Shown: in pieces, positions 25,880 through 34,700 of the stretch
Layout of the letters: the number at the start of each line of letters is the position of its first letter
Position numbering within the stretch: position 1 is the stretch's first letter
Assembly: GCA_041946735.1 (NCBI GenBank)
Contig: JBHGAY010000012.1
Coordinates: forward strand, 1 to 64,000
Source of the DNA: Candidatus Eiseniibacteriota bacterium
GTDB lineage: Bacteria; Eisenbacteria; RBG-16-71-46; CAIMUX01; VGJL01
Length of the DNA stretch: 64,000 nt
Direction: 5' to 3'
Position numbers and translations under genes: made by a program
Notes under the pieces: model-generated
Told to the model about the DNA's origin: nothing
Seen by the model: the letters and a program-made list of their open reading frames with translations, nothing else
The model's database searches: none

Positions 25880-26254
25880 ATGGATCTGCTTCGCAACATC
25901 GAGGCCCCTCACCTCCGTGAGGACATCCCCGACTTCGGACCGGGAGACACCGTCCGTGTCTTCGTGAAGGTCGTCGAGGGAGAGAAGGAGAGAAACCAGG
26001 TCTTCCAGGGCGTCGTGCTGGGCCGCCGCGGCTCGGGAATCGGCGCGACCTTCACCGTCCGGAAGGTGACCGATGGGGTCGGCGTCGAGAGGATCTTTCC
26101 GCTCCACTCGCCGAGCGTCGCGAAGGTGGAAGTCACGCGGCGCGGAAAGGTACGGAGAGCGAAGCTCGGATACTTGAAAGAGCTGAAGGGGAAGTCCGCG
26201 CGCATCAAGGAACGCAGCCAGACTGCGCGCGATGCGGAAGGCGCTTCCGCCTGA
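25880..26254 (+). CDS. rplS: 50S ribosomal protein L19
   Basis: [46 protein letters not shown]. Confidence 0.97.
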
Positions 26255-26894
26255 TCGCCTCGGGCCGCCGCCGAGCGGCCGATGGGAGGCAGCCCTCCTC
26301 AAGGGAGGCTGCCTTTTCGTCGCCGGCGTAGACGAGGTAGGACGAGGCTGCCTAGCCGGTCCCGTCGTCGCCGCCGCCGTCATCCTGAAGCCCGGGGCTC
26401 GGATCCCCGGGCTTCGCGATTCGAAGATCCTTCTTGCGCGCGAGCGCCGCGCGCTGATCCCGAAGATCCGCGCCGCCTGCGTGAGCTACGGGATCGGCGC
26501 GGTCGCGCCGTGCGGCATCGATCGCTGGAACATCCGGCGCGCGTCGTTCCGCGCGATGCGGATCGCGCTCTCGCGGCTCGACCCGCTTCCGGAGCACGCG
26601 CTCGTCGACGGCTTCCGTATTCCGCGACTCGGACTCGCGCAGACGCATCTCGTGCGCGGAGACCGCCGGTGCCGCTGCATCGCCGCCGCCTCGGTGATCG
26701 CGAAGGTCGCGCGCGACCGGCGAATGGACCGCTACCACCTGCTCTATCCGCAATACCTCTTCCATCGCAACCGCGGCTACGCCACGCCGGCGCATCTCGA
26801 AGCGCTCGGGCGTTTCGGCCCTTCCCCGCTGCACCGGAGGAGCTTCGAGCCGGTGCGGAGAAGGATCGAAGGGAACCTCGAGCTTCCGTTCTGA
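26232..26894 (+). CDS. rnhB: Ribonuclease HII
   Basis: [40 protein letters not shown]. Confidence 0.95.
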
Positions 26895-27016: not shown

Positions 27017-27610
27017 ATGGGCGCAACGAGGGGGAGCCGCAACCACGGCGGCAACGAAGGGAAGGGCTCGGCCGCCTCTGCGGCCGCGGCGGCCTCTACG
27101 GCGGCGGCCGCGGCTGCGGCTGCCGAGCGGGCCAGGATCGGGGCCGCGGCCGAAGCGATGGCGGCAGCCTACTTCGAGATGCACGGTTGCCGGATCGCGG
27201 CGCGCAACCTCCGCGTCGGAGGAGGCGAGATCGACCTCGTCGTGACGCGAGGCGCCTGGATGCTCCTGGTCGAGGTGCGGTGCCGGTCGAGCGAGTTCTT
27301 CGGAACACCCGCCGAGACGGTGCGCGGTCGTAAGGTCCGCGCGCTCGGCCGCGCGGCGAGGGCGCTCCTGTCGGGCGGGATGGCCGGCTCGTCCGTCGCA
27401 AGCGGCTCGCATGGCGCAGGCGGCACGTCCGGCGCAAGCGACACGACCGGCACGGCCGGCGCAATCGGCGCATCGGGCGCGACGGAGCGAGCGACTTGCT
27501 GGCGATTCGACATCGTGACCGTTTCCCGGCGGGCGCAGGGGATCCGGCTCGATCACTATCCAGGCGCTGTCGCGATCGAGCCGGAGGGGCCGAGAGGCGG
27601 GAAACGGTGA
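27017..27610 (+). CDS. yraN: YraN (UPF0102) family protein with low-complexity insertions
   Basis: G..AE..AA.Y, RNLR...GEIDLV, VEVR.R, RFDIV; follows rnhB; start uncertain. Confidence 0.8.
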   Translation: MGATRGSRNHGGNEGKGSAASAAAAASTAAAAAAAAERARIGAAAEAMAAAYFEMHGCRIAARNLRVGGGEIDLVVTRGAWMLLVEVRCRSSEFFGTPAETVRGRKVRALGRAARALLSGGMAGSSVASGSHGAGGTSGASDTTGTAGAIGASGATERATCWRFDIVTVSRRAQGIRLDHYPGAVAIEPEGPRGGKR

Positions 27611-27656
27611 GGGGCGAACACCCGGCCGCTAGTGAAAAAGAGTGACGAATCGGTAA

Positions 27657-27685
27657 TTGACACCCCTGGGGGTCGCAGGTACGGT
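27657..27685 (+). promoter_or_regulatory. Orphan sigma70 promoter
   Basis: Perfect TTGACA-N17-TACGGT (same -10 as the ffh promoter candidate); no credible CDS downstream on this strand. Confidence 0.65.
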
Positions 27686-27692
27686 CTTCGCG

Positions 27693-27817
27693 GCCCCGGA
27701 GAGGCCATGAGCGGTGTGGTGCAGTGTGGCGGTGAGGAAAGCTTGATCATGGCGGCTCTGCCCGACCCGATCTCACGTTGCCTTTCATCGGGCTGCGTTG
27801 GCGGATCCCTCCGGGGC
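27693..27817 (+). ncRNA. Candidate structured small RNA of about 125 nt, family unassigned
   Basis: Starts 8 nt after the -10 box; 9-bp terminal helix GCCCCGGAG/CTCCGGGGC; internal helices GCCATGA/TCATGGC, TCTGCC/GGCGGA and CCCGAT/ATCGGG. Confidence 0.55.
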
Positions 27818-27849
27818 ATCCTCTCCTGTGCCGCTTCCCTCCTTCACGA

Positions 27850-29277
27850 TCACGATCCCTTCGAGGCCGAGAAAGCGTAGCTCGCGCGGATCCGGATCGA
27901 GTCGTTCTCCCGATACCGCCCGAGAAGCGAGGCCGGACCTCCCGAGATGGAACGGATCTCCGCCTCCAGACGCGTGCTACTCCACGGGCTCCAGATCACG
28001 CGCGCGAGGAGGCTCTCCCCTCCGCGCCCGAGGTCGAGAAGCGATTCCGTCTCGATCGCGACGTCGGTGCCCGTCTCCCAGCGGACGCGTAGCAGCGCGG
28101 CGTGGCGGAACGGATGCCCCAGGATGGCCGGATCGCCGCCATCATCGAGCCGTGGCCGGCGCGCCGCCTGATCGAAAGCGTAGGTCCCGGACAGCCGGAG
28201 AGGCCGCCCGAGCAGTCCGTGTGGCAACCCCCTTTCCCAGCCGATCCCTGCGCGCAAGAACGGCCGGTCCGGCGCGATGGCTCCCGGCGATTCGCCGCCC
28301 GCGCGGTCCGGATCGAAGAGCGCCGCTTCCGCGTGTACGGTCGATCCGCCGGCCGGCCGGGCGAAGTCCAGCCCGAACATCCACAGGGAACGGTGGACAC
28401 CGCGCGTCCGGATCGACGCGACGCCGTCGCCGCCCGCGCGCGCCGGGGCGAGGAACTCGTAGACGCTTGCGATCCGCTCGCGCGAGCGCGCGAGCGAGAG
28501 TCCTGCGTCCCAGACCCCGAGGCGGAGATCCGCTCGCAGTCCCGCCTCGGAGCCGAGGGCGGAGGGCGAAGGCTCGCGCGCGCCGCCGTTCTCGAATCGC
28601 GCGGGGAAGGTTCCTTGGGGTAGAGAAATCGAATCGGGGAAGAGCGAGAAGGGATTCTCCGAGCGAAACGGGATTCGATCGGGCTCGAAGCGCGGGATCC
28701 AGATGCCTTCGAGCGTGACGGCTCCCTGGTAGCGATCGACACGCGCCGCCCAGCTTCCCTGGTCGAGCGGATCGATCGGGTCGATCCAGTCGCGACGCCG
28801 GAAGACGTCGACGGCGCGGAGCGCGTCGAGCCGGCCCCAGTCGAGGATCTGACGGCCGAGCGTCGCCTCCCAGGCGCCGAACGCCGCTCGCGCGTATCCC
28901 TCGTCGAGGCGCAGGCGATCGCGCTCGGGATCCTGCGCGTCGTGGAGCAGACGGGCGTCGAGCCGCGCGGCCAGCGAGGAGGACGCCTCGAGCCTGAGCC
29001 CGAGCCTTCCCTCCAGAGCGGAACGGCTCGCAGCGGGCCGCTCGCGCAGGCTGCGGTCCTGCTCTCCTTCCATGCCGACCGTCGCGGCGAGGCGCGCGGC
29101 CAGGGCCGGAGGGGCGGCGACGAGGGGGAGAGAGACGGAAAGACCGAGGGGAAGAAAGAGGGTGAGACGGAGGCGGAGAAAGCGGGAGGGACAGATGCCG
29201 AAAAAGCAGAGACCGAATGAGCAGAGACGGAGAGAGGAGAGACGGACGGGGAGGAGGAGGGGCCGGCCGCGGTTCAT
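27850..29277 (-). CDS. Putative outer-membrane beta-barrel protein (DUF1302-like)
   Basis: Signal-like N-terminus, LDEGY....LGRQILDWG motif, C-terminal IRIRASYAF; ATGA-coupled to the upstream gene. Confidence 0.65.
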   Translation of the reverse strand: MNRGRPLLLPVRLSSLRLCSFGLCFFGICPSRFLRLRLTLFLPLGLSVSLPLVAAPPALAARLAATVGMEGEQDRSLRERPAASRSALEGRLGLRLEASSSLAARLDARLLHDAQDPERDRLRLDEGYARAAFGAWEATLGRQILDWGRLDALRAVDVFRRRDWIDPIDPLDQGSWAARVDRYQGAVTLEGIWIPRFEPDRIPFRSENPFSLFPDSISLPQGTFPARFENGGAREPSPSALGSEAGLRADLRLGVWDAGLSLARSRERIASVYEFLAPARAGGDGVASIRTRGVHRSLWMFGLDFARPAGGSTVHAEAALFDPDRAGGESPGAIAPDRPFLRAGIGWERGLPHGLLGRPLRLSGTYAFDQAARRPRLDDGGDPAILGHPFRHAALLRVRWETGTDVAIETESLLDLGRGGESLLARVIWSPWSSTRLEAEIRSISGGPASLLGRYRENDSIRIRASYAFSASKGS

Positions 29278-30110
29278 GCAGAGCTCCGCAACGAACGCTC
29301 CGTGAAGAGACGCTCCGGAAGCGCATCGAAGCGCCGATTCTGGACGACGATCTGCGTCACGTGGCCGCTCCGGAGATCCCGCAGCTCCGTACGGTTCCAC
29401 CGCGCGCGGCCGCCGGCGATCACCGGCTCCGAGTTCCGGGCTTCCTTTCGCTCCTGCCCGTCGCGCCCGTAGAGCAGCGCCCGGCGCCAGACCGGCCGGT
29501 CCTTCTCGACCCAGTAGACCTTCCTCGAGTAGAGAGAGGCTTCGTTGGCCGGCAGCGCGAGCGGCCGCACCTCCAGCTTTCGACAGGCGACGCCGTCGAC
29601 CATCTCCTCGCCGATCCACGCGAAGGCGTGGTCGCCGGCGCGGAGGTCGGTCAGGTCTTCGTAACTGTAGTCGGTCCCCATATAGGTCTCGCCGCGGTCG
29701 GCGGAGGCGATCCGTCGGGTCGTGTGATAGGCGGGAAGGTAGATCCACCAGTCGGGACCGCGCTCCTCGTTCTCGATCGCGAGCAGCGAGCAGCCTTCCA
29801 TCTCGGGCGGGGAGCGGAACTCGATCCGGCGAGCGGTCCGGCCGGCGGCGAGCGTCTTCTGCAGGAAGATCGCCGCGCGAGCGTGGCGAGAGCCGCCCGC
29901 GTCGAGAAGGGTCATCGTCGCCTCGGTCCTCTCATCGGCGCCGGAGGCTTCCTGCTGGATGCGCTCGAACGCGGCGCGCGGGTCTTCCGGGACGGAAGAA
30001 GCGGAGGACGGCGGGGGCGTAGCGGCGGCCGCGACGATCGCGAGAACGACGGCGGCCAACGCCGCCATCGCGCGCGCGCGACGAAGCGGAGAGACGGCGG
30101 CCGGTCTCAT
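29274..30110 (-). CDS. Outer membrane lipoprotein-sorting (LolA-like) protein
   Basis: F..P....G...L, WIYLPA...RRI, YMGTDYSYEDL, LFTERSL; signal peptide. Confidence 0.82.
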   Translation of the reverse strand: MRPAAVSPLRRARAMAALAAVVLAIVAAAATPPPSSASSVPEDPRAAFERIQQEASGADERTEATMTLLDAGGSRHARAAIFLQKTLAAGRTARRIEFRSPPEMEGCSLLAIENEERGPDWWIYLPAYHTTRRIASADRGETYMGTDYSYEDLTDLRAGDHAFAWIGEEMVDGVACRKLEVRPLALPANEASLYSRKVYWVEKDRPVWRRALLYGRDGQERKEARNSEPVIAGGRARWNRTELRDLRSGHVTQIVVQNRRFDALPERLFTERSLRSSA

Positions 30111-32554
30111 TCGCATCCCCGCTGGCGGATCGCGGAGGCCAGGTTGCCGGCCACGATCGCCCGCAGCGACGGCCAGGTCAGGTACGGTCCGGCCAGGACG
30201 AAGGCGGCGAGGACCGGGGCGAAGTCCAGCCAGCTCGCGTGGAGCGTGAGGGGAAACCAGGCTCGCTCGAGTCGCCCGTTGAGGAAGAGCGAGACGAGCA
30301 GCGCTGCGGGAAGGGAAAGCAGCGCGGCAAGGACCGCCTGGCATGCGGCCTCGCGCCGGACGATCTGCGCAAGGGAGCCGGGGTCGCATCCGAGGGAGCG
30401 GAAGGTCGCGTACTCCCCCGAGCGCTCCAGCGCGCCCAGGTTCAGGCTCGTGAGAAGAAAGAGGATCGCCATCGCGATCGCGATCCCGGTCGTGATGTGC
30501 ACGATCCGGAACACCTCATCGAGGAGCGCGAAAAGCGAGCGTTCCAGATCCTCCTTCGGGACGACTCCGGCGACGATCGGCAGGGCGAGGATCTCCTCGG
30601 TACCCGGACCGTTCGGCCCGTCCGCTTCGATCAGCACGCCGCTCGCCTGCTCGGCGAGGCCGGTCCAGGCGCGCACCGACTCGATGGGCGCGATGAGACG
30701 GTCCAGCACGATCTCGCGTCCGATGCCCGTCACGCGGACCGTCCGCGCCTCGCATCCCGGGATCCGGAGACGCACGGCGTCGCCGACGCGCAGCGCCATG
30801 CGCCGCGCCACGTCGGGGCCGGCGATCACGCCGTCCTCGAATGCCGCCGGCATCCGACCTTCGCGCAGCGTGACGGTGCGCAGCCGCGCGCACGGGTCGA
30901 TGCCGAGCACCGTCACCGGCTCGCTCCCGGCATTTGTTTCGTCTTCCTCCTCGTCCTTGTCCTTGCCCCCGTTCTTGTCCTTGCCCCCGGCCTCCGCCCG
31001 GCCCCGGCCGGCGACCGCTTCGATCTCCACCACCCGGCTGACGAACGGCTCGGTCGCGCGAATCCCGGGGAGGGCGAGCAGAGGCGCCATCTCTTCCGGA
31101 TAGGCGGGATGCAGGAAGTGGACGCTCAGATCCCAGCGTTCGTGCCGGCATGCTTCGCGCGCCGTCTCGGTCATCGAGCGCGACGAGAAGCGGTAGGCGA
31201 CGGCGACGCCGAGGGCGCCGGCAAGGGCGAGGGTCGTCACCGCGGTCAAGCCCGGGCGACGGATCAGATTGCGTGCGGCCCAGCGCGAAGTGAGGCGCAT
31301 CGGCGCCGTCCAGTCGAGCAGCCGCAGTAGGGACGGAGCGAGACGCGCGGGAGCCGAATCGACGGCGCGGATCGTCGCGGCGGCGGATCGTCGCAGCAGG
31401 CCGAGCACCGGCGCGGAGATCGCGGCGACCGAGGCGAGGAGCGCCGGAATGGAGGCGAGGAGGAAGTCCCCCGCGTAGAAGTGCCGGTCGATGCGCGGCA
31501 GGCCGATCGCCGTTCCATAGATCCGCGCGAAGGCGTCGCGGATCGCGATCGCGGGCGCGAATGCGGCGGCGATGCCGGCCAGGCCGAGCAGGGCGGCCGT
31601 CCCCGCATACCAGGAGAGGATCTGCCGCCGCGAAGATCCGAGCGCGCGAAGCGTCCCGATCTCCCGGCGCTGCGCGAGGACCATCCGGCGAAAGCTGAGG
31701 ATCGCGATCAGCAGGCTCAGACCGCCGAGAGTCCATGCGATCGCCGGCGCATAGATCGATAGGGCCCGCACGTCGATCTCGAGGAACCTGTAGCCGAAGC
31801 GCCTCTCCCGCGGAATCGCCTCCTCGATCGCGACCGCGCGGCCGCAGGCCGCCAGCACCTCCTGCTCCGCCTGCCGGCGATCCGACCCGGGCGCGTACCG
31901 TACGGCCAGGTCGTTCACCATCCGGAATCCGAGGCGCCCGGCGACGAGGTCCAGGTTGCCGAAGACGACGAGGAGCGATCCCTTCTGAGGAATGAACGAC
32001 TGCGGGTCGACCGAAGCGGCGAGGTGCTCGGAGGAGAGCACGATGCCGCGGATGTGGGTCCGATAGCGAGCCCGGCCGATGGCGAGATCGACCGAGTCGC
32101 CCGGAGCGAGGTGGTGCGGGATTGCGAAGCCCCGATCGACCAGAACGCCTGTCGTGTCGGCGGGATCGAGCGGCGATCCGCAGATCAGCGGGAGTTGGTC
32201 CACGGCGGGCTGCGGAGAGTCGAGGAAGATCGCCTGCGCGGTCACGCGAGCGCCGCCGGCGAGCCGCGCCGACGCGGGGAAGATGAGGCGCGCCTCGGCG
32301 GCCTCGACGCAAGGCAAGGTGGCGGCTGCGGCGCGCAGGGGCGCGGGATCGTCGGGCGCGAAGCGGAGCTCCAGGTCGGCGCCGCGACACTCTTCGAGGA
32401 TCGTGTCGCGCGTCGCGAGCAGCGTGCGCCCAGCCATCCGCGATCCGGCGGTGACGCCGATGCCGACGGCGAGCGAGACGACGATCGATGCGCTGCGCCA
32501 GCGCGCCGACGCGAGATCGCGCAGCGACCTACGCCACAACTTCGATAGGGCCAT
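30107..32554 (-). CDS. FtsX/MacB-like ABC permease with two permease repeats
   Basis: QRREIGTLRALG and ERSGEYATFRSLG repeats; large periplasmic loops. Confidence 0.85.
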   Translation of the reverse strand: MALSKLWRRSLRDLASARWRSASIVVSLAVGIGVTAGSRMAGRTLLATRDTILEECRGADLELRFAPDDPAPLRAAAATLPCVEAAEARLIFPASARLAGGARVTAQAIFLDSPQPAVDQLPLICGSPLDPADTTGVLVDRGFAIPHHLAPGDSVDLAIGRARYRTHIRGIVLSSEHLAASVDPQSFIPQKGSLLVVFGNLDLVAGRLGFRMVNDLAVRYAPGSDRRQAEQEVLAACGRAVAIEEAIPRERRFGYRFLEIDVRALSIYAPAIAWTLGGLSLLIAILSFRRMVLAQRREIGTLRALGSSRRQILSWYAGTAALLGLAGIAAAFAPAIAIRDAFARIYGTAIGLPRIDRHFYAGDFLLASIPALLASVAAISAPVLGLLRRSAAATIRAVDSAPARLAPSLLRLLDWTAPMRLTSRWAARNLIRRPGLTAVTTLALAGALGVAVAYRFSSRSMTETAREACRHERWDLSVHFLHPAYPEEMAPLLALPGIRATEPFVSRVVEIEAVAGRGRAEAGGKDKNGGKDKDEEEDETNAGSEPVTVLGIDPCARLRTVTLREGRMPAAFEDGVIAGPDVARRMALRVGDAVRLRIPGCEARTVRVTGIGREIVLDRLIAPIESVRAWTGLAEQASGVLIEADGPNGPGTEEILALPIVAGVVPKEDLERSLFALLDEVFRIVHITTGIAIAMAILFLLTSLNLGALERSGEYATFRSLGCDPGSLAQIVRREAACQAVLAALLSLPAALLVSLFLNGRLERAWFPLTLHASWLDFAPVLAAFVLAGPYLTWPSLRAIVAGNLASAIRQRGCE

Positions 32555-33341
32555 CGACGTCTCGAGCCGTGGAGCCGGCGCGGGTGCCGGTGAAACCTCC
32601 GGCGCCGGCGGGAACGCGGTCGCGCGCGCTGGAGCCGTGTCTGCCGGGGCGCGGGCAGGCCGACAGGTTCCCCCCGTCGAGGCGGAAGACCCGGTCGGTC
32701 GCGATCGTCGCGGAGACGTCGTGGGTCGCGACGAGGAACGTCGCCCCGGTGCGTTCGCTCAGCGAGCGGAGCAGGCGCCAGATCTCTGCGGCGGTCTCGT
32801 GATCGAGGTTGCCGGTCGGCTCGTCCGCGAGGACGAGCGGCGGGTGCTTCGCGAGGGCGCGGGCGACCGCGACCCTCTGCTGCTCGCCTCCCGAAAGCTG
32901 CGCGGGAAACGCCGCGGCCCGCCCGGCGAGTCCGACCGCGTGCAGGTACTCGCGCGCCCGCTCGTGGATCGCGTGGCGGGTCCACCCGCCCGCGATCTCG
33001 AGCCCCGCCTCGACGTTCTCGAGCGCAGTCAGAGTCGGCAGCAGATTGTAGGACTGGAAGACGAAGCCGATCTGCTCGCGGCGGAAGCGGGCGAGGCCGG
33101 TCTCCGTCATCCGCTCGATGCGCCGGCCGCACACCTCGATCGTGCCGGCACTAGGGCGGTCCATTCCGCCGATCAGATTCAGCAGCGTGCTCTTGCCCGA
33201 TCCCGAGACGCCGAGAACGATCCCGAAGCTGCCCTCGTCGATGTCGAGCGAGAGCTCGCGGAGCACGGGCCGGTCGCCCGCCGCCGATGCCCCGTATCCC
33301 TTCCACAGCCCGGCGACCGATACGATGCGCCGCGGCTCCAT
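32529..33341 (-). CDS. ABC ATP-binding protein (LolD/MacB-like)
   Basis: [51 protein letters not shown]; alternative GTG start at 33410. Confidence 0.93.
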
Positions 33342-33577
33342 CCCTCGCGCTGTCAGGCGACCCTCCTGTCGTTGCTCCCGCGGCGGCCGTAAGGTGGCGT
33401 CCGATCCCACGATCGGCCCTTTTCCCAGGCTGCTTCACGATTTCCGAGGAGGCGCACGGCGGGGCACGCCGGCGGGGCAGGCGGGGCGCGCAGGCGGGGG
33501 CGGGCGCCGCGCGCCGGCGGGGCAGGCGGCCGCTGGGCGGCGGCCGCGAAGCGCGCGGCCGGGCGGGGCGAATCGAT

Positions 33578-33647: not shown

Positions 33648-34700
33648 TTGCCGCCTGCCGAACGCGAGGGGATCGAGGATCTCGCCTTGCGGATCCGCAG
33701 CAGGGATCGCCGCGCCCTGTCTCGAGCCATCTCTTGGATCGAAGACCAGACGCCGGCGGGCCGCCTGCTGCTCGACCGCGTGTACTCCCCGGAGGGGAGG
33801 GCCCACCGGCTCGGCATTACCGGCCCTCCGGGATCCGGCAAGTCGACGCTCGTGAGCCAGCTGACGCGGCTGCTTCGCGCGCGCGGCGTCCGTGTGGCCG
33901 TCCTCGCCGTCGATCCCTCGAGCCCGTTCACCGGGGGCGCCGTGCTCGGCGACCGGATCCGAATGCAGGATCATGCCGGCGATCCGGACGTCTTCATCCG
34001 GAGCATGGCAAGCCGCGGCAGCCTCGGCGGCCTCGCGTCAACCACCTACGAGGTGAGCGAGGCGGTGGAGGCGGCCGGATACGACTGGATCCTGATCGAG
34101 ACGGTCGGCGTCGGGCAGTCGGAGATGGAGATCGTCGAGGCGGCCGACACGACGCTCGTCGTCCTCGTCCCGGAATCGGGGGACGGGGTGCAGGTGATGA
34201 AAGCGGGGTTGATGGAGGCGGCCGACCTCTTCGTGGTCAACAAATACGACCGCGACGGCGGCGATCGCCTGATCAAGGAAATCAGCCTGATGCTCGAGCT
34301 GGGTCGCGAGCAGGACAGGGAGCGGCGCGGTGCCGCGCCGGGCGCCAACGAGCCGCGCTGGGAGCGGCGCATCCATCGCACCGTCGCCTCGACCGGCCTC
34401 GGAGTGCCGGAACTGCTCGGGGGGATCGATGCGCACCGGGCGCATCTACGCTCCGATCCGGAGCGCTGGCAGCAGCGACAACGACGCCGCCTTCGCCGGC
34501 GGCTGCGCGGCCAGCTTCGCGACCGGCTGCTGCAGGTCCTCGAGCGCGACGACCGCCTCGAGGGATGGCTACGCGAAGGAGAGAGACGGATCGTCGCCGG
34601 AGAGGCGTCGCCGTACGGCTGGATCGACGCGATGGCGAGCCGCCTTCTCGAGGGGGAGCGATCCTTCGAGCCGGCGGCCCCCCGACGGGAGGAGCGATGA
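33648..34700 (+). CDS. meaB: Methylmalonyl-CoA mutase-associated GTPase MeaB
   Basis: [49 protein letters not shown] start after GGAGGA. Confidence 0.95.

Follow-up and report, generated by a model that had tools for sequence, protein, structure and literature searches.

A candidate small structured RNA gene downstream of yraN, confined to a single family of Candidatus Eisenbacteria among the genomes searched

The intergenic region that follows yraN in the window (the whole 64,000-nucleotide stretch of DNA analyzed here) likely contains a genuine new small RNA gene. The predicted product, encoded in a single copy, is a non-coding and structured RNA with a length of about 118-129 nt, and the reading of the locus as an RNA gene can be held with good confidence as a whole, even where its parts are less secure. 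The first-pass annotation of this DNA had proposed a separate transcription unit that yields a structured RNA of about 125 nt, and the promoter, the two ends and the three arms of such an RNA recur in all six versions of the locus that were found. The coordinates given in that annotation for the promoter and for P1, P2, P3a and P3b all proved exact when the sequence was read again (Table 1). Among the genomes searched, all those that carry this predicted gene belong to one family of Candidatus Eisenbacteria.

Table 1. Features of the yraN-downstream locus and its surroundings, in window coordinates.
Feature	Positions	Strand	Remarks
rnhB	26232-26894	+	In conserved gene row
yraN (UPF0102)	27110-27610	+	Pfam PF02021, E 2.9e-18; conserved upstream neighbor
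-35 hexamer TTGACA	27657-27662	+	Exact in 6/6 versions
-10 hexamer TACGGT	27680-27685	+	TAnnnT in 6/6 versions; TAGATT or TAGTTT in relatives
Predicted RNA, 126 nt	27692-27817	+	5' end from promoter geometry; 3' end placed at the end of P1
P1 5' strand GCCCCGGAG	27693-27701	+	Tenth pair possible with G27692 in some relatives
P2 5' strand GCCATGA	27704-27710	+	GCCAUGA/UCAUGGC, 7 bp
P2 loop	27711-27746	+	G/U-rich, C-poor, little self-structure, carries GAGG
P2 3' strand TCATGGC	27747-27753	+	Pairs with 27704-27710
P3 arm	27754-27808	+	Irregular long hairpin; P3a and P3b in the window
P3a	TCTGCC 27757-27762 / GGCGGA 27800-27805	+	One G-U pair
P3b	CCCGAT 27766-27771 / ATCGGG 27787-27792	+	
P1 3' strand CTCCGGGGC	27809-27817	+	Exact reverse complement of 27693-27701; invariant in 6/6 versions
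Pyrimidine-rich tract ATCCTCTCCTGTGCC	27818-27832	+	Follows P1; terminator tail or single-stranded 3' tail
Four-gene block	27850-33410	-	Pfam: weak Wzi-like match, LolA-like, FtsX permease, ABC ATPase
meaB	33666-34628		Own promoter TTGACA-N18-TACGTT in the window

The RNA locus forms the end of a row of genes on the + strand that consists of rpsP, trmD, rplS, rnhB and yraN. The intergenic region after yraN measures 239 nt and is bounded by a gene on the opposite strand that ends at 27850. While the order rnhB-yraN-RNA is kept in all six versions, the gene on the far side is not the same throughout. In five of them meaB lies directly downstream on the same strand, roughly 120-190 nt past P1. 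In the window, meaB is 5.8 kb from the RNA, behind a convergent block of four genes that spans 5.6 kb and is present between the RNA and meaB in the window genome only. The earlier statement that no gene lies downstream to be regulated is thus correct for the window but not for the relatives, in which meaB follows with a promoter of its own. This promoter, TTGAC(A/G)-N17/18-TAnnnT, is placed between the RNA and the meaB start codon, and it is also present in L006, a family locus without the RNA. Despite the four-gene block, the RNA of the window stayed beside yraN with all of its conserved parts. Because the block separates the RNA from meaB in the window, while meaB is a neighbor in the relatives, the RNA is best regarded as a separate unit. 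The part of the published record available for YraN reports a role for this protein, as a DNA nuclease, in the resolution of D-loops during transformation, and as far as that part goes the report is no reason to suppose a functional link between the RNA and yraN.

Used as a BLASTN query, the 239 nt intergenic region matched the window's own genome alone among the 41 genomes searched, which comprised that genome and 40 relatives. For this reason the relatives were located by synteny, through rnhB and then the sequence downstream of yraN. rnhB was located in five of the six genomes of the window's GTDB family. RnhB of the four family relatives is 63-68% identical to that of the window, and for YraN the identity in relatives is about 39-42%. 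Three of these four relatives (L004, L005 and L007, which belong to three further genera of this family) possess the same succession of elements: TTGACA-N17-TAGATT or TAGTTT, a few bases, GGCCCCGGAG, 1-2 nt, GCCATG(A) and a variable G-rich stretch, followed by (T)CATGGC, a variable stretch and CTCCGGGGC. In the fourth, L006, yraN is followed directly by the meaB promoter and the RNA is missing. Since the genome in question (G005) is 99% complete, the absence indicates that the RNA is not essential.

Scans for the exact pattern extended this set. In species genomes the scan returned six loci, two of them true and four of them chance occurrences in other phyla that lacked the promoter; the covariance model R1 scored one of these four at 16.5 bits and did not match the other three at E values up to 1. 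In metagenome contigs it returned nine loci, of which five were due to chance and four were true. Two of the true loci were identical to L005, and the other two, L021 and L023, were new versions in the order rnhB-yraN-RNA-meaB. Altogether, the six distinct versions come from four of the six genomes of the family (window positions 27692-27817, L004, L005 and L007) and from two metagenome contigs (L021 and L023). They amount to about five independent lineages, all of one family, with L021 a near-duplicate and L007 and L021 the closest pair.

The covariance models separate these versions from the background. The first model scored the six versions at 56.8-120.1 bits and the chance pattern hits at no more than 22 bits, and for the models overall the window reached 107.8-120.1 bits and the five other versions 56.8-150.6 bits. 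When R1 was applied to the order, 4 of 35 genomes were matched, all of them in the window's family (f1), and none of the 29 in other families. A second model, R2, matched 4 of 151 genomes of the phylum, in the window's family only; this tally possibly includes one unpublished genome (G052), on which no claim depends. There was a single match per genome. The genome searches scored the best 22-98 candidates in each genome, and weak copies may be missed in this way. Additionally, R1 was run with its filters off on 28 rnhB loci (27 from other families and L006), where the best result was a match of 32 nt at 23.1 bits, and the sequence after yraN contained no such element in 24 loci (23 from other families and L006).

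The promoter has a constant geometry. The -35 hexamer is TTGACA and the spacer between the two hexamers is 17 nt in all six versions, the -10 hexamer is TAnnnT in each (TACGGT in the window), and the distance from the end of the -10 hexamer to the start of GGCCCCGGAG, at GGCCCC, is 6-8 nt. This distance places the predicted start at the first base of the terminal stem. A small RNA gene is expected to have its own promoter and a conserved 5' end that lies at a constant distance from it, and this was found in six of six versions. Moreover, the 64 kb window contains TTGACA-N17-TAnnnT a single time, where 0.02 occurrences would be expected. A scan of the window for consensus promoters did not call the site because TACGGT agrees with TATAAT at just three of six positions, and the -10 hexamer of the window is the weakest among the six versions. 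No similar pattern was found directly upstream of the 6S, SRP, RNase P and tmRNA genes of the same genome, so these housekeeping RNA genes provide no reference promoter. Based on this geometry, we infer that the RNA has its own promoter of the sigma-70 type and that transcription would begin at G27692 or at a base beside it.

At the other end, the RNA would terminate at the end of P1 or a few nucleotides past it. A terminator scan found no canonical terminator at the locus. In all six versions, 10 of the first 12 nt past P1 are C or T, and this pyrimidine tract is probably a weak terminator tail.

None of the known RNA families tested accounts for the locus. Searched at curated thresholds, Rfam 15 identified a 23S fragment, a 5S rRNA and a tRNA in the window and nothing at the locus. 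At E values up to 10, the region 27550-27950 gave three sub-threshold matches, which were taken as chance; the best of these, skipping-rope, scored 14.9 bits against a threshold of 36.7 and lay on the minus strand. ARAGORN likewise found nothing at the locus. The Rfam search had been proposed in the first-pass annotation, which left two candidate identities for the RNA, and its outcome favors one of them, an unassigned class. The other, a divergent short 6S RNA, is rejected: the 6S model (RF00013) does not match the locus at E values up to 10, and a canonical 6S gene lies on another contig (G000:C25:40516-40694) with 70.9 bits against a cut-off of 46.4. The annotation had also set aside SRP RNA, tmRNA, RNase P RNA and 5S rRNA, and this agrees with the model searches. 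No SRP, RNase P or tmRNA model matches the locus, and each role is filled elsewhere in the genome, by an SRP RNA on contig 15 (65.8 bits), an RNase P RNA on contig 5 (291.8 bits) and a tmRNA on contig 12 (181.9 bits). Similarly, RF00001 has no match at the locus at E values up to 10, and a normal 5S rRNA gene is present at 434-550 of the window (114 bits).

The evidence for a structured RNA from the window by itself hardly exceeds chance. The + strand folds with -62.4 kcal/mol, compared with -55.6 +/- 4.1 for shuffled sequences (z -1.65, with 13 of 200 shuffles as good), and the minus strand has a z of -0.94. Perfect 9-mer inverted repeats 80-130 nt apart, such as those that form P1, number 65 pairs in the window, or about 1 per kb. 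Instead, it is the recurrence of the whole layout in the relatives that raises the element above chance. The z values of the full-length folds range from -1.96 to -2.74 in five of the six versions, with +0.39 in L005, and those of P3 alone from -0.64 to -1.10 in three versions, with +0.65 in L005.

The three-way junction that had been drawn from the window sequence is possible in all six versions, and the pairing of its third arm is kept while the sequence changes. P1 comprises 9-10 bp, of which 9 of 10 pairs are without change in the six sequences. In P2, five of the seven pairs are without change, and one G-C pair becomes G-U in L005. The junction J1/2 varies (AG, CG, CG, U, UC and UU). Each of the six P3 domains, 50-60 nt in length, forms one hairpin when folded by itself, and this hairpin closes beside P2 and P1. 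The nearly frozen sequences of P1 and P2 give no evidence from covariation.

Several observations indicate that the strands of P3 evolve together. In an alignment of the six sequences that was fitted to the structure, and is therefore biased towards it, 89.9% of the pair cells are paired, against 33-52% with slid partners. A model made from L007, L021 and L023 alone and then applied to all six sequences, with the same bias, gave 90.8% paired cells against 41-48% for slid partners; in this model P3 is changed on both sides at 6 of 20 pairs, and 2 of 500 shuffles reach its covariation score. When the strands of P3 were exchanged between versions, each strand paired better with its own partner (-24.4 kcal/mol) than with others (-21.5 kcal/mol), and 10 of 720 permutations were as good (5 of 120 without L021). 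For example, P3a changes from CCGC/GCGG in L007 to CGUC/GGCG in L023. In addition, the G-U pairs in P2 and P3 are compatible with the + strand only. A conserved structure with compensatory changes and no conserved open reading frame, as expected of a small RNA gene, was therefore found, with a power limited by the number of sequences, which is six.

The loop of P2 is unusual in composition. Between GCCAU and AUGGC, the loops of the six versions are 34-40 nt long and consist of 47-54% G, 20-38% U and 5-13% C. GAGG, GGUG and GUGG are present in all six, at positions that are not fixed. Folded alone, these loops reach just -3.3 to -5.8 kcal/mol. Because the loop is almost without C and cannot pair with itself, it should stay open. 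Each loop has four or more runs of at least two G, except that of L023, which has three, two of them of 5 and 6. From these runs, a two-layer G-quadruplex in the loop is conceivable.

The composition of this loop also gives rise to the most serious alternative, in which the same RNA gene forms a rod by pairing the G-rich segment with a C-rich one, either as a short RNA of the 6S type or as a switch between rod and three-way junction. The rod is the unconstrained minimum-energy fold in six of six versions and is 3.6-11.3 kcal/mol better than the three-way junction. In all six of these rod folds P2 is open, and its G-rich loop is paired to the 5' strand of P3, which is C-rich. L007 even possesses a perfect helix of 10 bp, CUGGGGUGAG/CUCACCCCAG. 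This pairing, however, is not specific to its partners across the relatives: cognate combinations give -27.35 kcal/mol and non-cognate ones -26.75, and 217 of 720 permutations are as good (28 of 120 without L021). The register of the helix differs between L007 and L023, and the change from UGAG to AGAG in L021 is uncompensated, whereas the difference between CUCA in L007 and CUGA in L023 is compensated within P3 and not in the rod. The rod would also leave the conserved complementarity of GCCAUGA and UCAUGGC without a role, and as a 6S RNA it would have to coexist with the canonical gene, escape the 6S model and measure about 125 nt against a model length of 187. The first-pass annotation had pointed to complementarity between the two large loops and had considered a kissing interaction or a switch to a 6S-like rod. 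Some of the complementarity is real (GTGAG/CTCAC, 5 bp, and GGC/GCC, 3 bp), but these segments are separated by an uneven gap, GAAAG and CTTTC cannot share the same antiparallel helix, and neither the kissing interaction nor the switch is borne out by the permutations. The fit of P3 strands to their own partners, together with the unspecific pairing of the rod, indicates that P3 is held by selection and that the rod reflects base composition. We therefore regard the rod as quite unlikely. The three-way junction is the better-supported fold and is favored to a moderate degree; folding during transcription would also favor the local hairpins P2 and P3.

A second alternative, which appears very unlikely, is that the element is a cis-acting leader of meaB, an attenuator or riboswitch in which P1 and the pyrimidine tract form a conditional terminator and of which the window copy is a stranded relic. 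The position of meaB in five of the six versions, on the same strand and shortly after P1, would fit such a leader. A three-way junction that is closed by P1 beside a U-rich tract is, moreover, a typical form of riboswitch aptamer. Against this, a separate promoter precedes meaB in the relatives, in L006, where the RNA is missing, and in the window. The pairing of P1, P2 and P3 is intact in the window even though the convergent block intervenes, and relatives in the same order that have the arrangement yraN-meaB are without the element. Moreover, the junction nucleotides vary in sequence and in length, unlike the cores of riboswitches, and conservation is concentrated in P1 and P2.

It is also highly improbable that the conservation acts at the level of DNA and involves no functional RNA, as it would in protein-bound inverted repeats, a recombination site or a case of chance conservation. 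The conserved parts do consist of two nested perfect inverted repeats, and a block of genes was inserted right behind the element in the window genome. Such an element, however, would not explain the promoter at a fixed distance in six of six versions or the interior arm with co-varying strands, and the G-U pairs would be A-C mismatches on the other strand. The element is present in a single copy and is associated with no integrase or repeat family. Half-sites spaced by 36 and 107 bp are furthermore unlike those of operators.

The two conserved strands of P2 each contain an ATG, and GGAG precedes the first by 4-5 nt in all six versions. Open reading frames from the first ATG encode 57, 68, 11, 58, 74 and 5 aa in the six versions, and those from the second encode 43, 56, >151, 61, 60 and 6 aa. 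No reading frame on either strand is conserved in the six versions, as the distances between invariant blocks differ modulo 3, and the earlier reading of the locus as non-coding is upheld. That the locus encodes a small protein or a leader peptide is thus scarcely credible. The invariant GGAG-N4-5-ATG, the second conserved ATG behind a purine-rich stretch and the open frames of 43-74 aa in several versions would speak for it, but the frames of L023 and L005 end after 5 and 11 codons from the first ATG or after 6 from the second, and L007 and L021, the closest pair, share a frame for only 5 residues. In addition, each of the three phases is used across the invariant 3' block, and both ATGs lie within the conserved P2 stem.

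If the locus is an RNA gene with a three-way junction, then its conservation suggests how the product may work. The RNA would fold with P1 formed from both of its ends, P2 carrying the open G/U-rich loop, and P3 as a hairpin. The loops and junctions drift, but the sequences of P1 and P2 are frozen, and this suggests that a partner recognizes the two helices by their sequence. Helices whose sequence is likewise frozen are known in Y RNA and SRP RNA. P1 and P2 together may thus form a platform by which some partner, most likely a protein, recognizes the RNA, and the open loop with its GAGG may be the working surface that binds pyrimidine-rich RNA or a protein. This division into a platform and an open effector loop is a tentative proposal, and on the sequence evidence available we consider it doubtful.

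A more specific form of this proposal, which is unlikely, inverts the usual chemistry of small RNA seeds. Here pyrimidine-rich RNA would be captured by the loop as a decoy, or the loop would form a quadruplex, while P1 and P2 recruit a dedicated, putative protein. Such a decoy might capture 16S rRNA by its anti-Shine-Dalgarno tail, or other small RNAs by their C/U-rich seeds; alternatively, a G-quadruplex in the loop might be recognized by a protein specific to the clade. If true, the RNA would be part of a small ribonucleoprotein of a type so far undescribed in bacteria.

The consensus -35 hexamer, the optimal spacing of 17 nt and the two frozen helices, set in a background that can no longer be aligned, suggest that the cells need this RNA in a precise form. 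To our knowledge, the Eisenbacteria are known from metagenomes only. No RNA gene specific to the Eisenbacteria is reported among the matches listed by a literature search, within the parts of those sources that were available. Overall, the locus would define an RNA family that is new but narrow in range, within an uncultured phylum, and its interest is moderate. With this narrow range, it is a modest finding for now. The RNA is nevertheless a target of 120-130 nt that can be synthesized for structure probing and pull-downs, and its covariance model is usable to chart the clade in metagenomes and metatranscriptomes.

Comparison with known systems reveals likenesses to several classes of small RNA. 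The CsrB/RsmZ sponges of CsrA come to mind because CsrA is encoded in five of the six family genomes and the RNA contains GGA motifs. There are 2-7 such motifs per RNA, several of them within stems, and by eye 0-3 in each P2 loop, with none in that of L004. A role as a CsrA-sequestering RNA was rejected, since the motifs are few and are not placed in repeated hairpin loops and since CsrA is also encoded in G005, where the RNA is absent. Hfq was found in none of the six family genomes, nor was Ro60 (TROVE, PF05731), and the presence or absence of CsrA, Hfq and TROVE is no lead to a partner protein. 6C RNA and RsaE/RoxS are base-pairing small RNAs of high-GC bacteria with C-rich loops. They resemble the present RNA as small stand-alone molecules in which a stable stem presents an unpaired loop with a biased composition. 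In contrast to theirs, the loop here is G/U-rich and C-poor, so that it resembles a Shine-Dalgarno sequence (GAGG) and cannot pair with one.

The RNA is similar to 5S rRNA in size class and in the three-way junction whose first helix joins both ends, a likeness of shape only. With 6S RNA (RF00013) it has in common a stand-alone, single-copy gene, paired ends and a rod-like minimum-energy fold. It differs from 6S in its length, about 125 nt as opposed to about 180-190 nt, in the lack of a conserved central bubble, and in a rod pairing without co-evolution. Y RNAs, which are bound by Ro60, a protein usually encoded nearby, are about 100-130 nt long, and their ends form a long stem of conserved sequence that is accompanied by variable loops and a pyrimidine-rich 3' end. 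Although the locus has no match to the Rfam Y_RNA or YrlA models and no tRNA-like module, the RNA predicted here resembles Y RNA and YrlA in these same features, namely its size, the conserved stem formed by its ends and its pyrimidine-rich 3' end.

In this genome, a block of four genes, which encode a weak Wzi-like match, a LolA-like protein, an FtsX-type permease and an ABC ATPase, fills exactly the gap between the RNA gene and the promoter of meaB. Because relatives have these two elements side by side, with no such block between them, the four genes look like an insertion or rearrangement directly behind the RNA gene. No integrase was noticed with this block. Degenerate G-rich repeats, built of GGCGGGGC-like units, make up the intergenic DNA upstream of the meaB promoter.

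Features described in the text, with coordinates in the window unless a contig is named
Feature	Position	Strand
yraN, Ala-rich N-terminal extension	27060-27140	
yraN, low-complexity insert	about 27390-27480	
Four-gene block	27850-33410	minus
G-rich repeats	33440-33570	
rnhB of L007/L008	G004:C4:164017-164653	
SRP RNA gene region with two weak tmRNA-model matches	G000:C15:47487-47967	

The yraN protein (UPF0102) of this genome carries an extension at its N-terminus and an insert rich in Gly/Ala/Ser/Thr within the UPF0102 domain. Its Pfam match covers residues 14-138 of 166 (translation of 27110-27607). In one relative, from another genus of the family (L007/L008), the rnhB match is split in two, with one in-frame TGA flagged per row. 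The gene could be frameshifted or broken, or the split could stem from an error in sequencing.

Upstream of the SRP RNA gene, on contig 15 of the window's genome, the two tmRNA-model matches (76-91 nt) are probably tRNA genes. If so, they would point to a tRNA-SRP transcript as the source of the SRP RNA.

Two pattern matches in other phyla (L016 and L017) are chance matches with no connection to the window's RNA. They are made of palindromic GGCCCCGGAGGGGCC units on both sides of about 100 nt, and both loci look like repeat elements of their own genomes. L050 comes from a genome that belongs to the order but to a different family. There, a promoter (TTGACA-N18-TAACAT) and then a leader of about 200 nt, rich in GC hairpins, lie about 60-270 nt past the yraN stop. 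The gene that follows is assumed to be meaB, by analogy with other loci of the order. This candidate leader is distinct from the window's RNA and looks unrelated to it.
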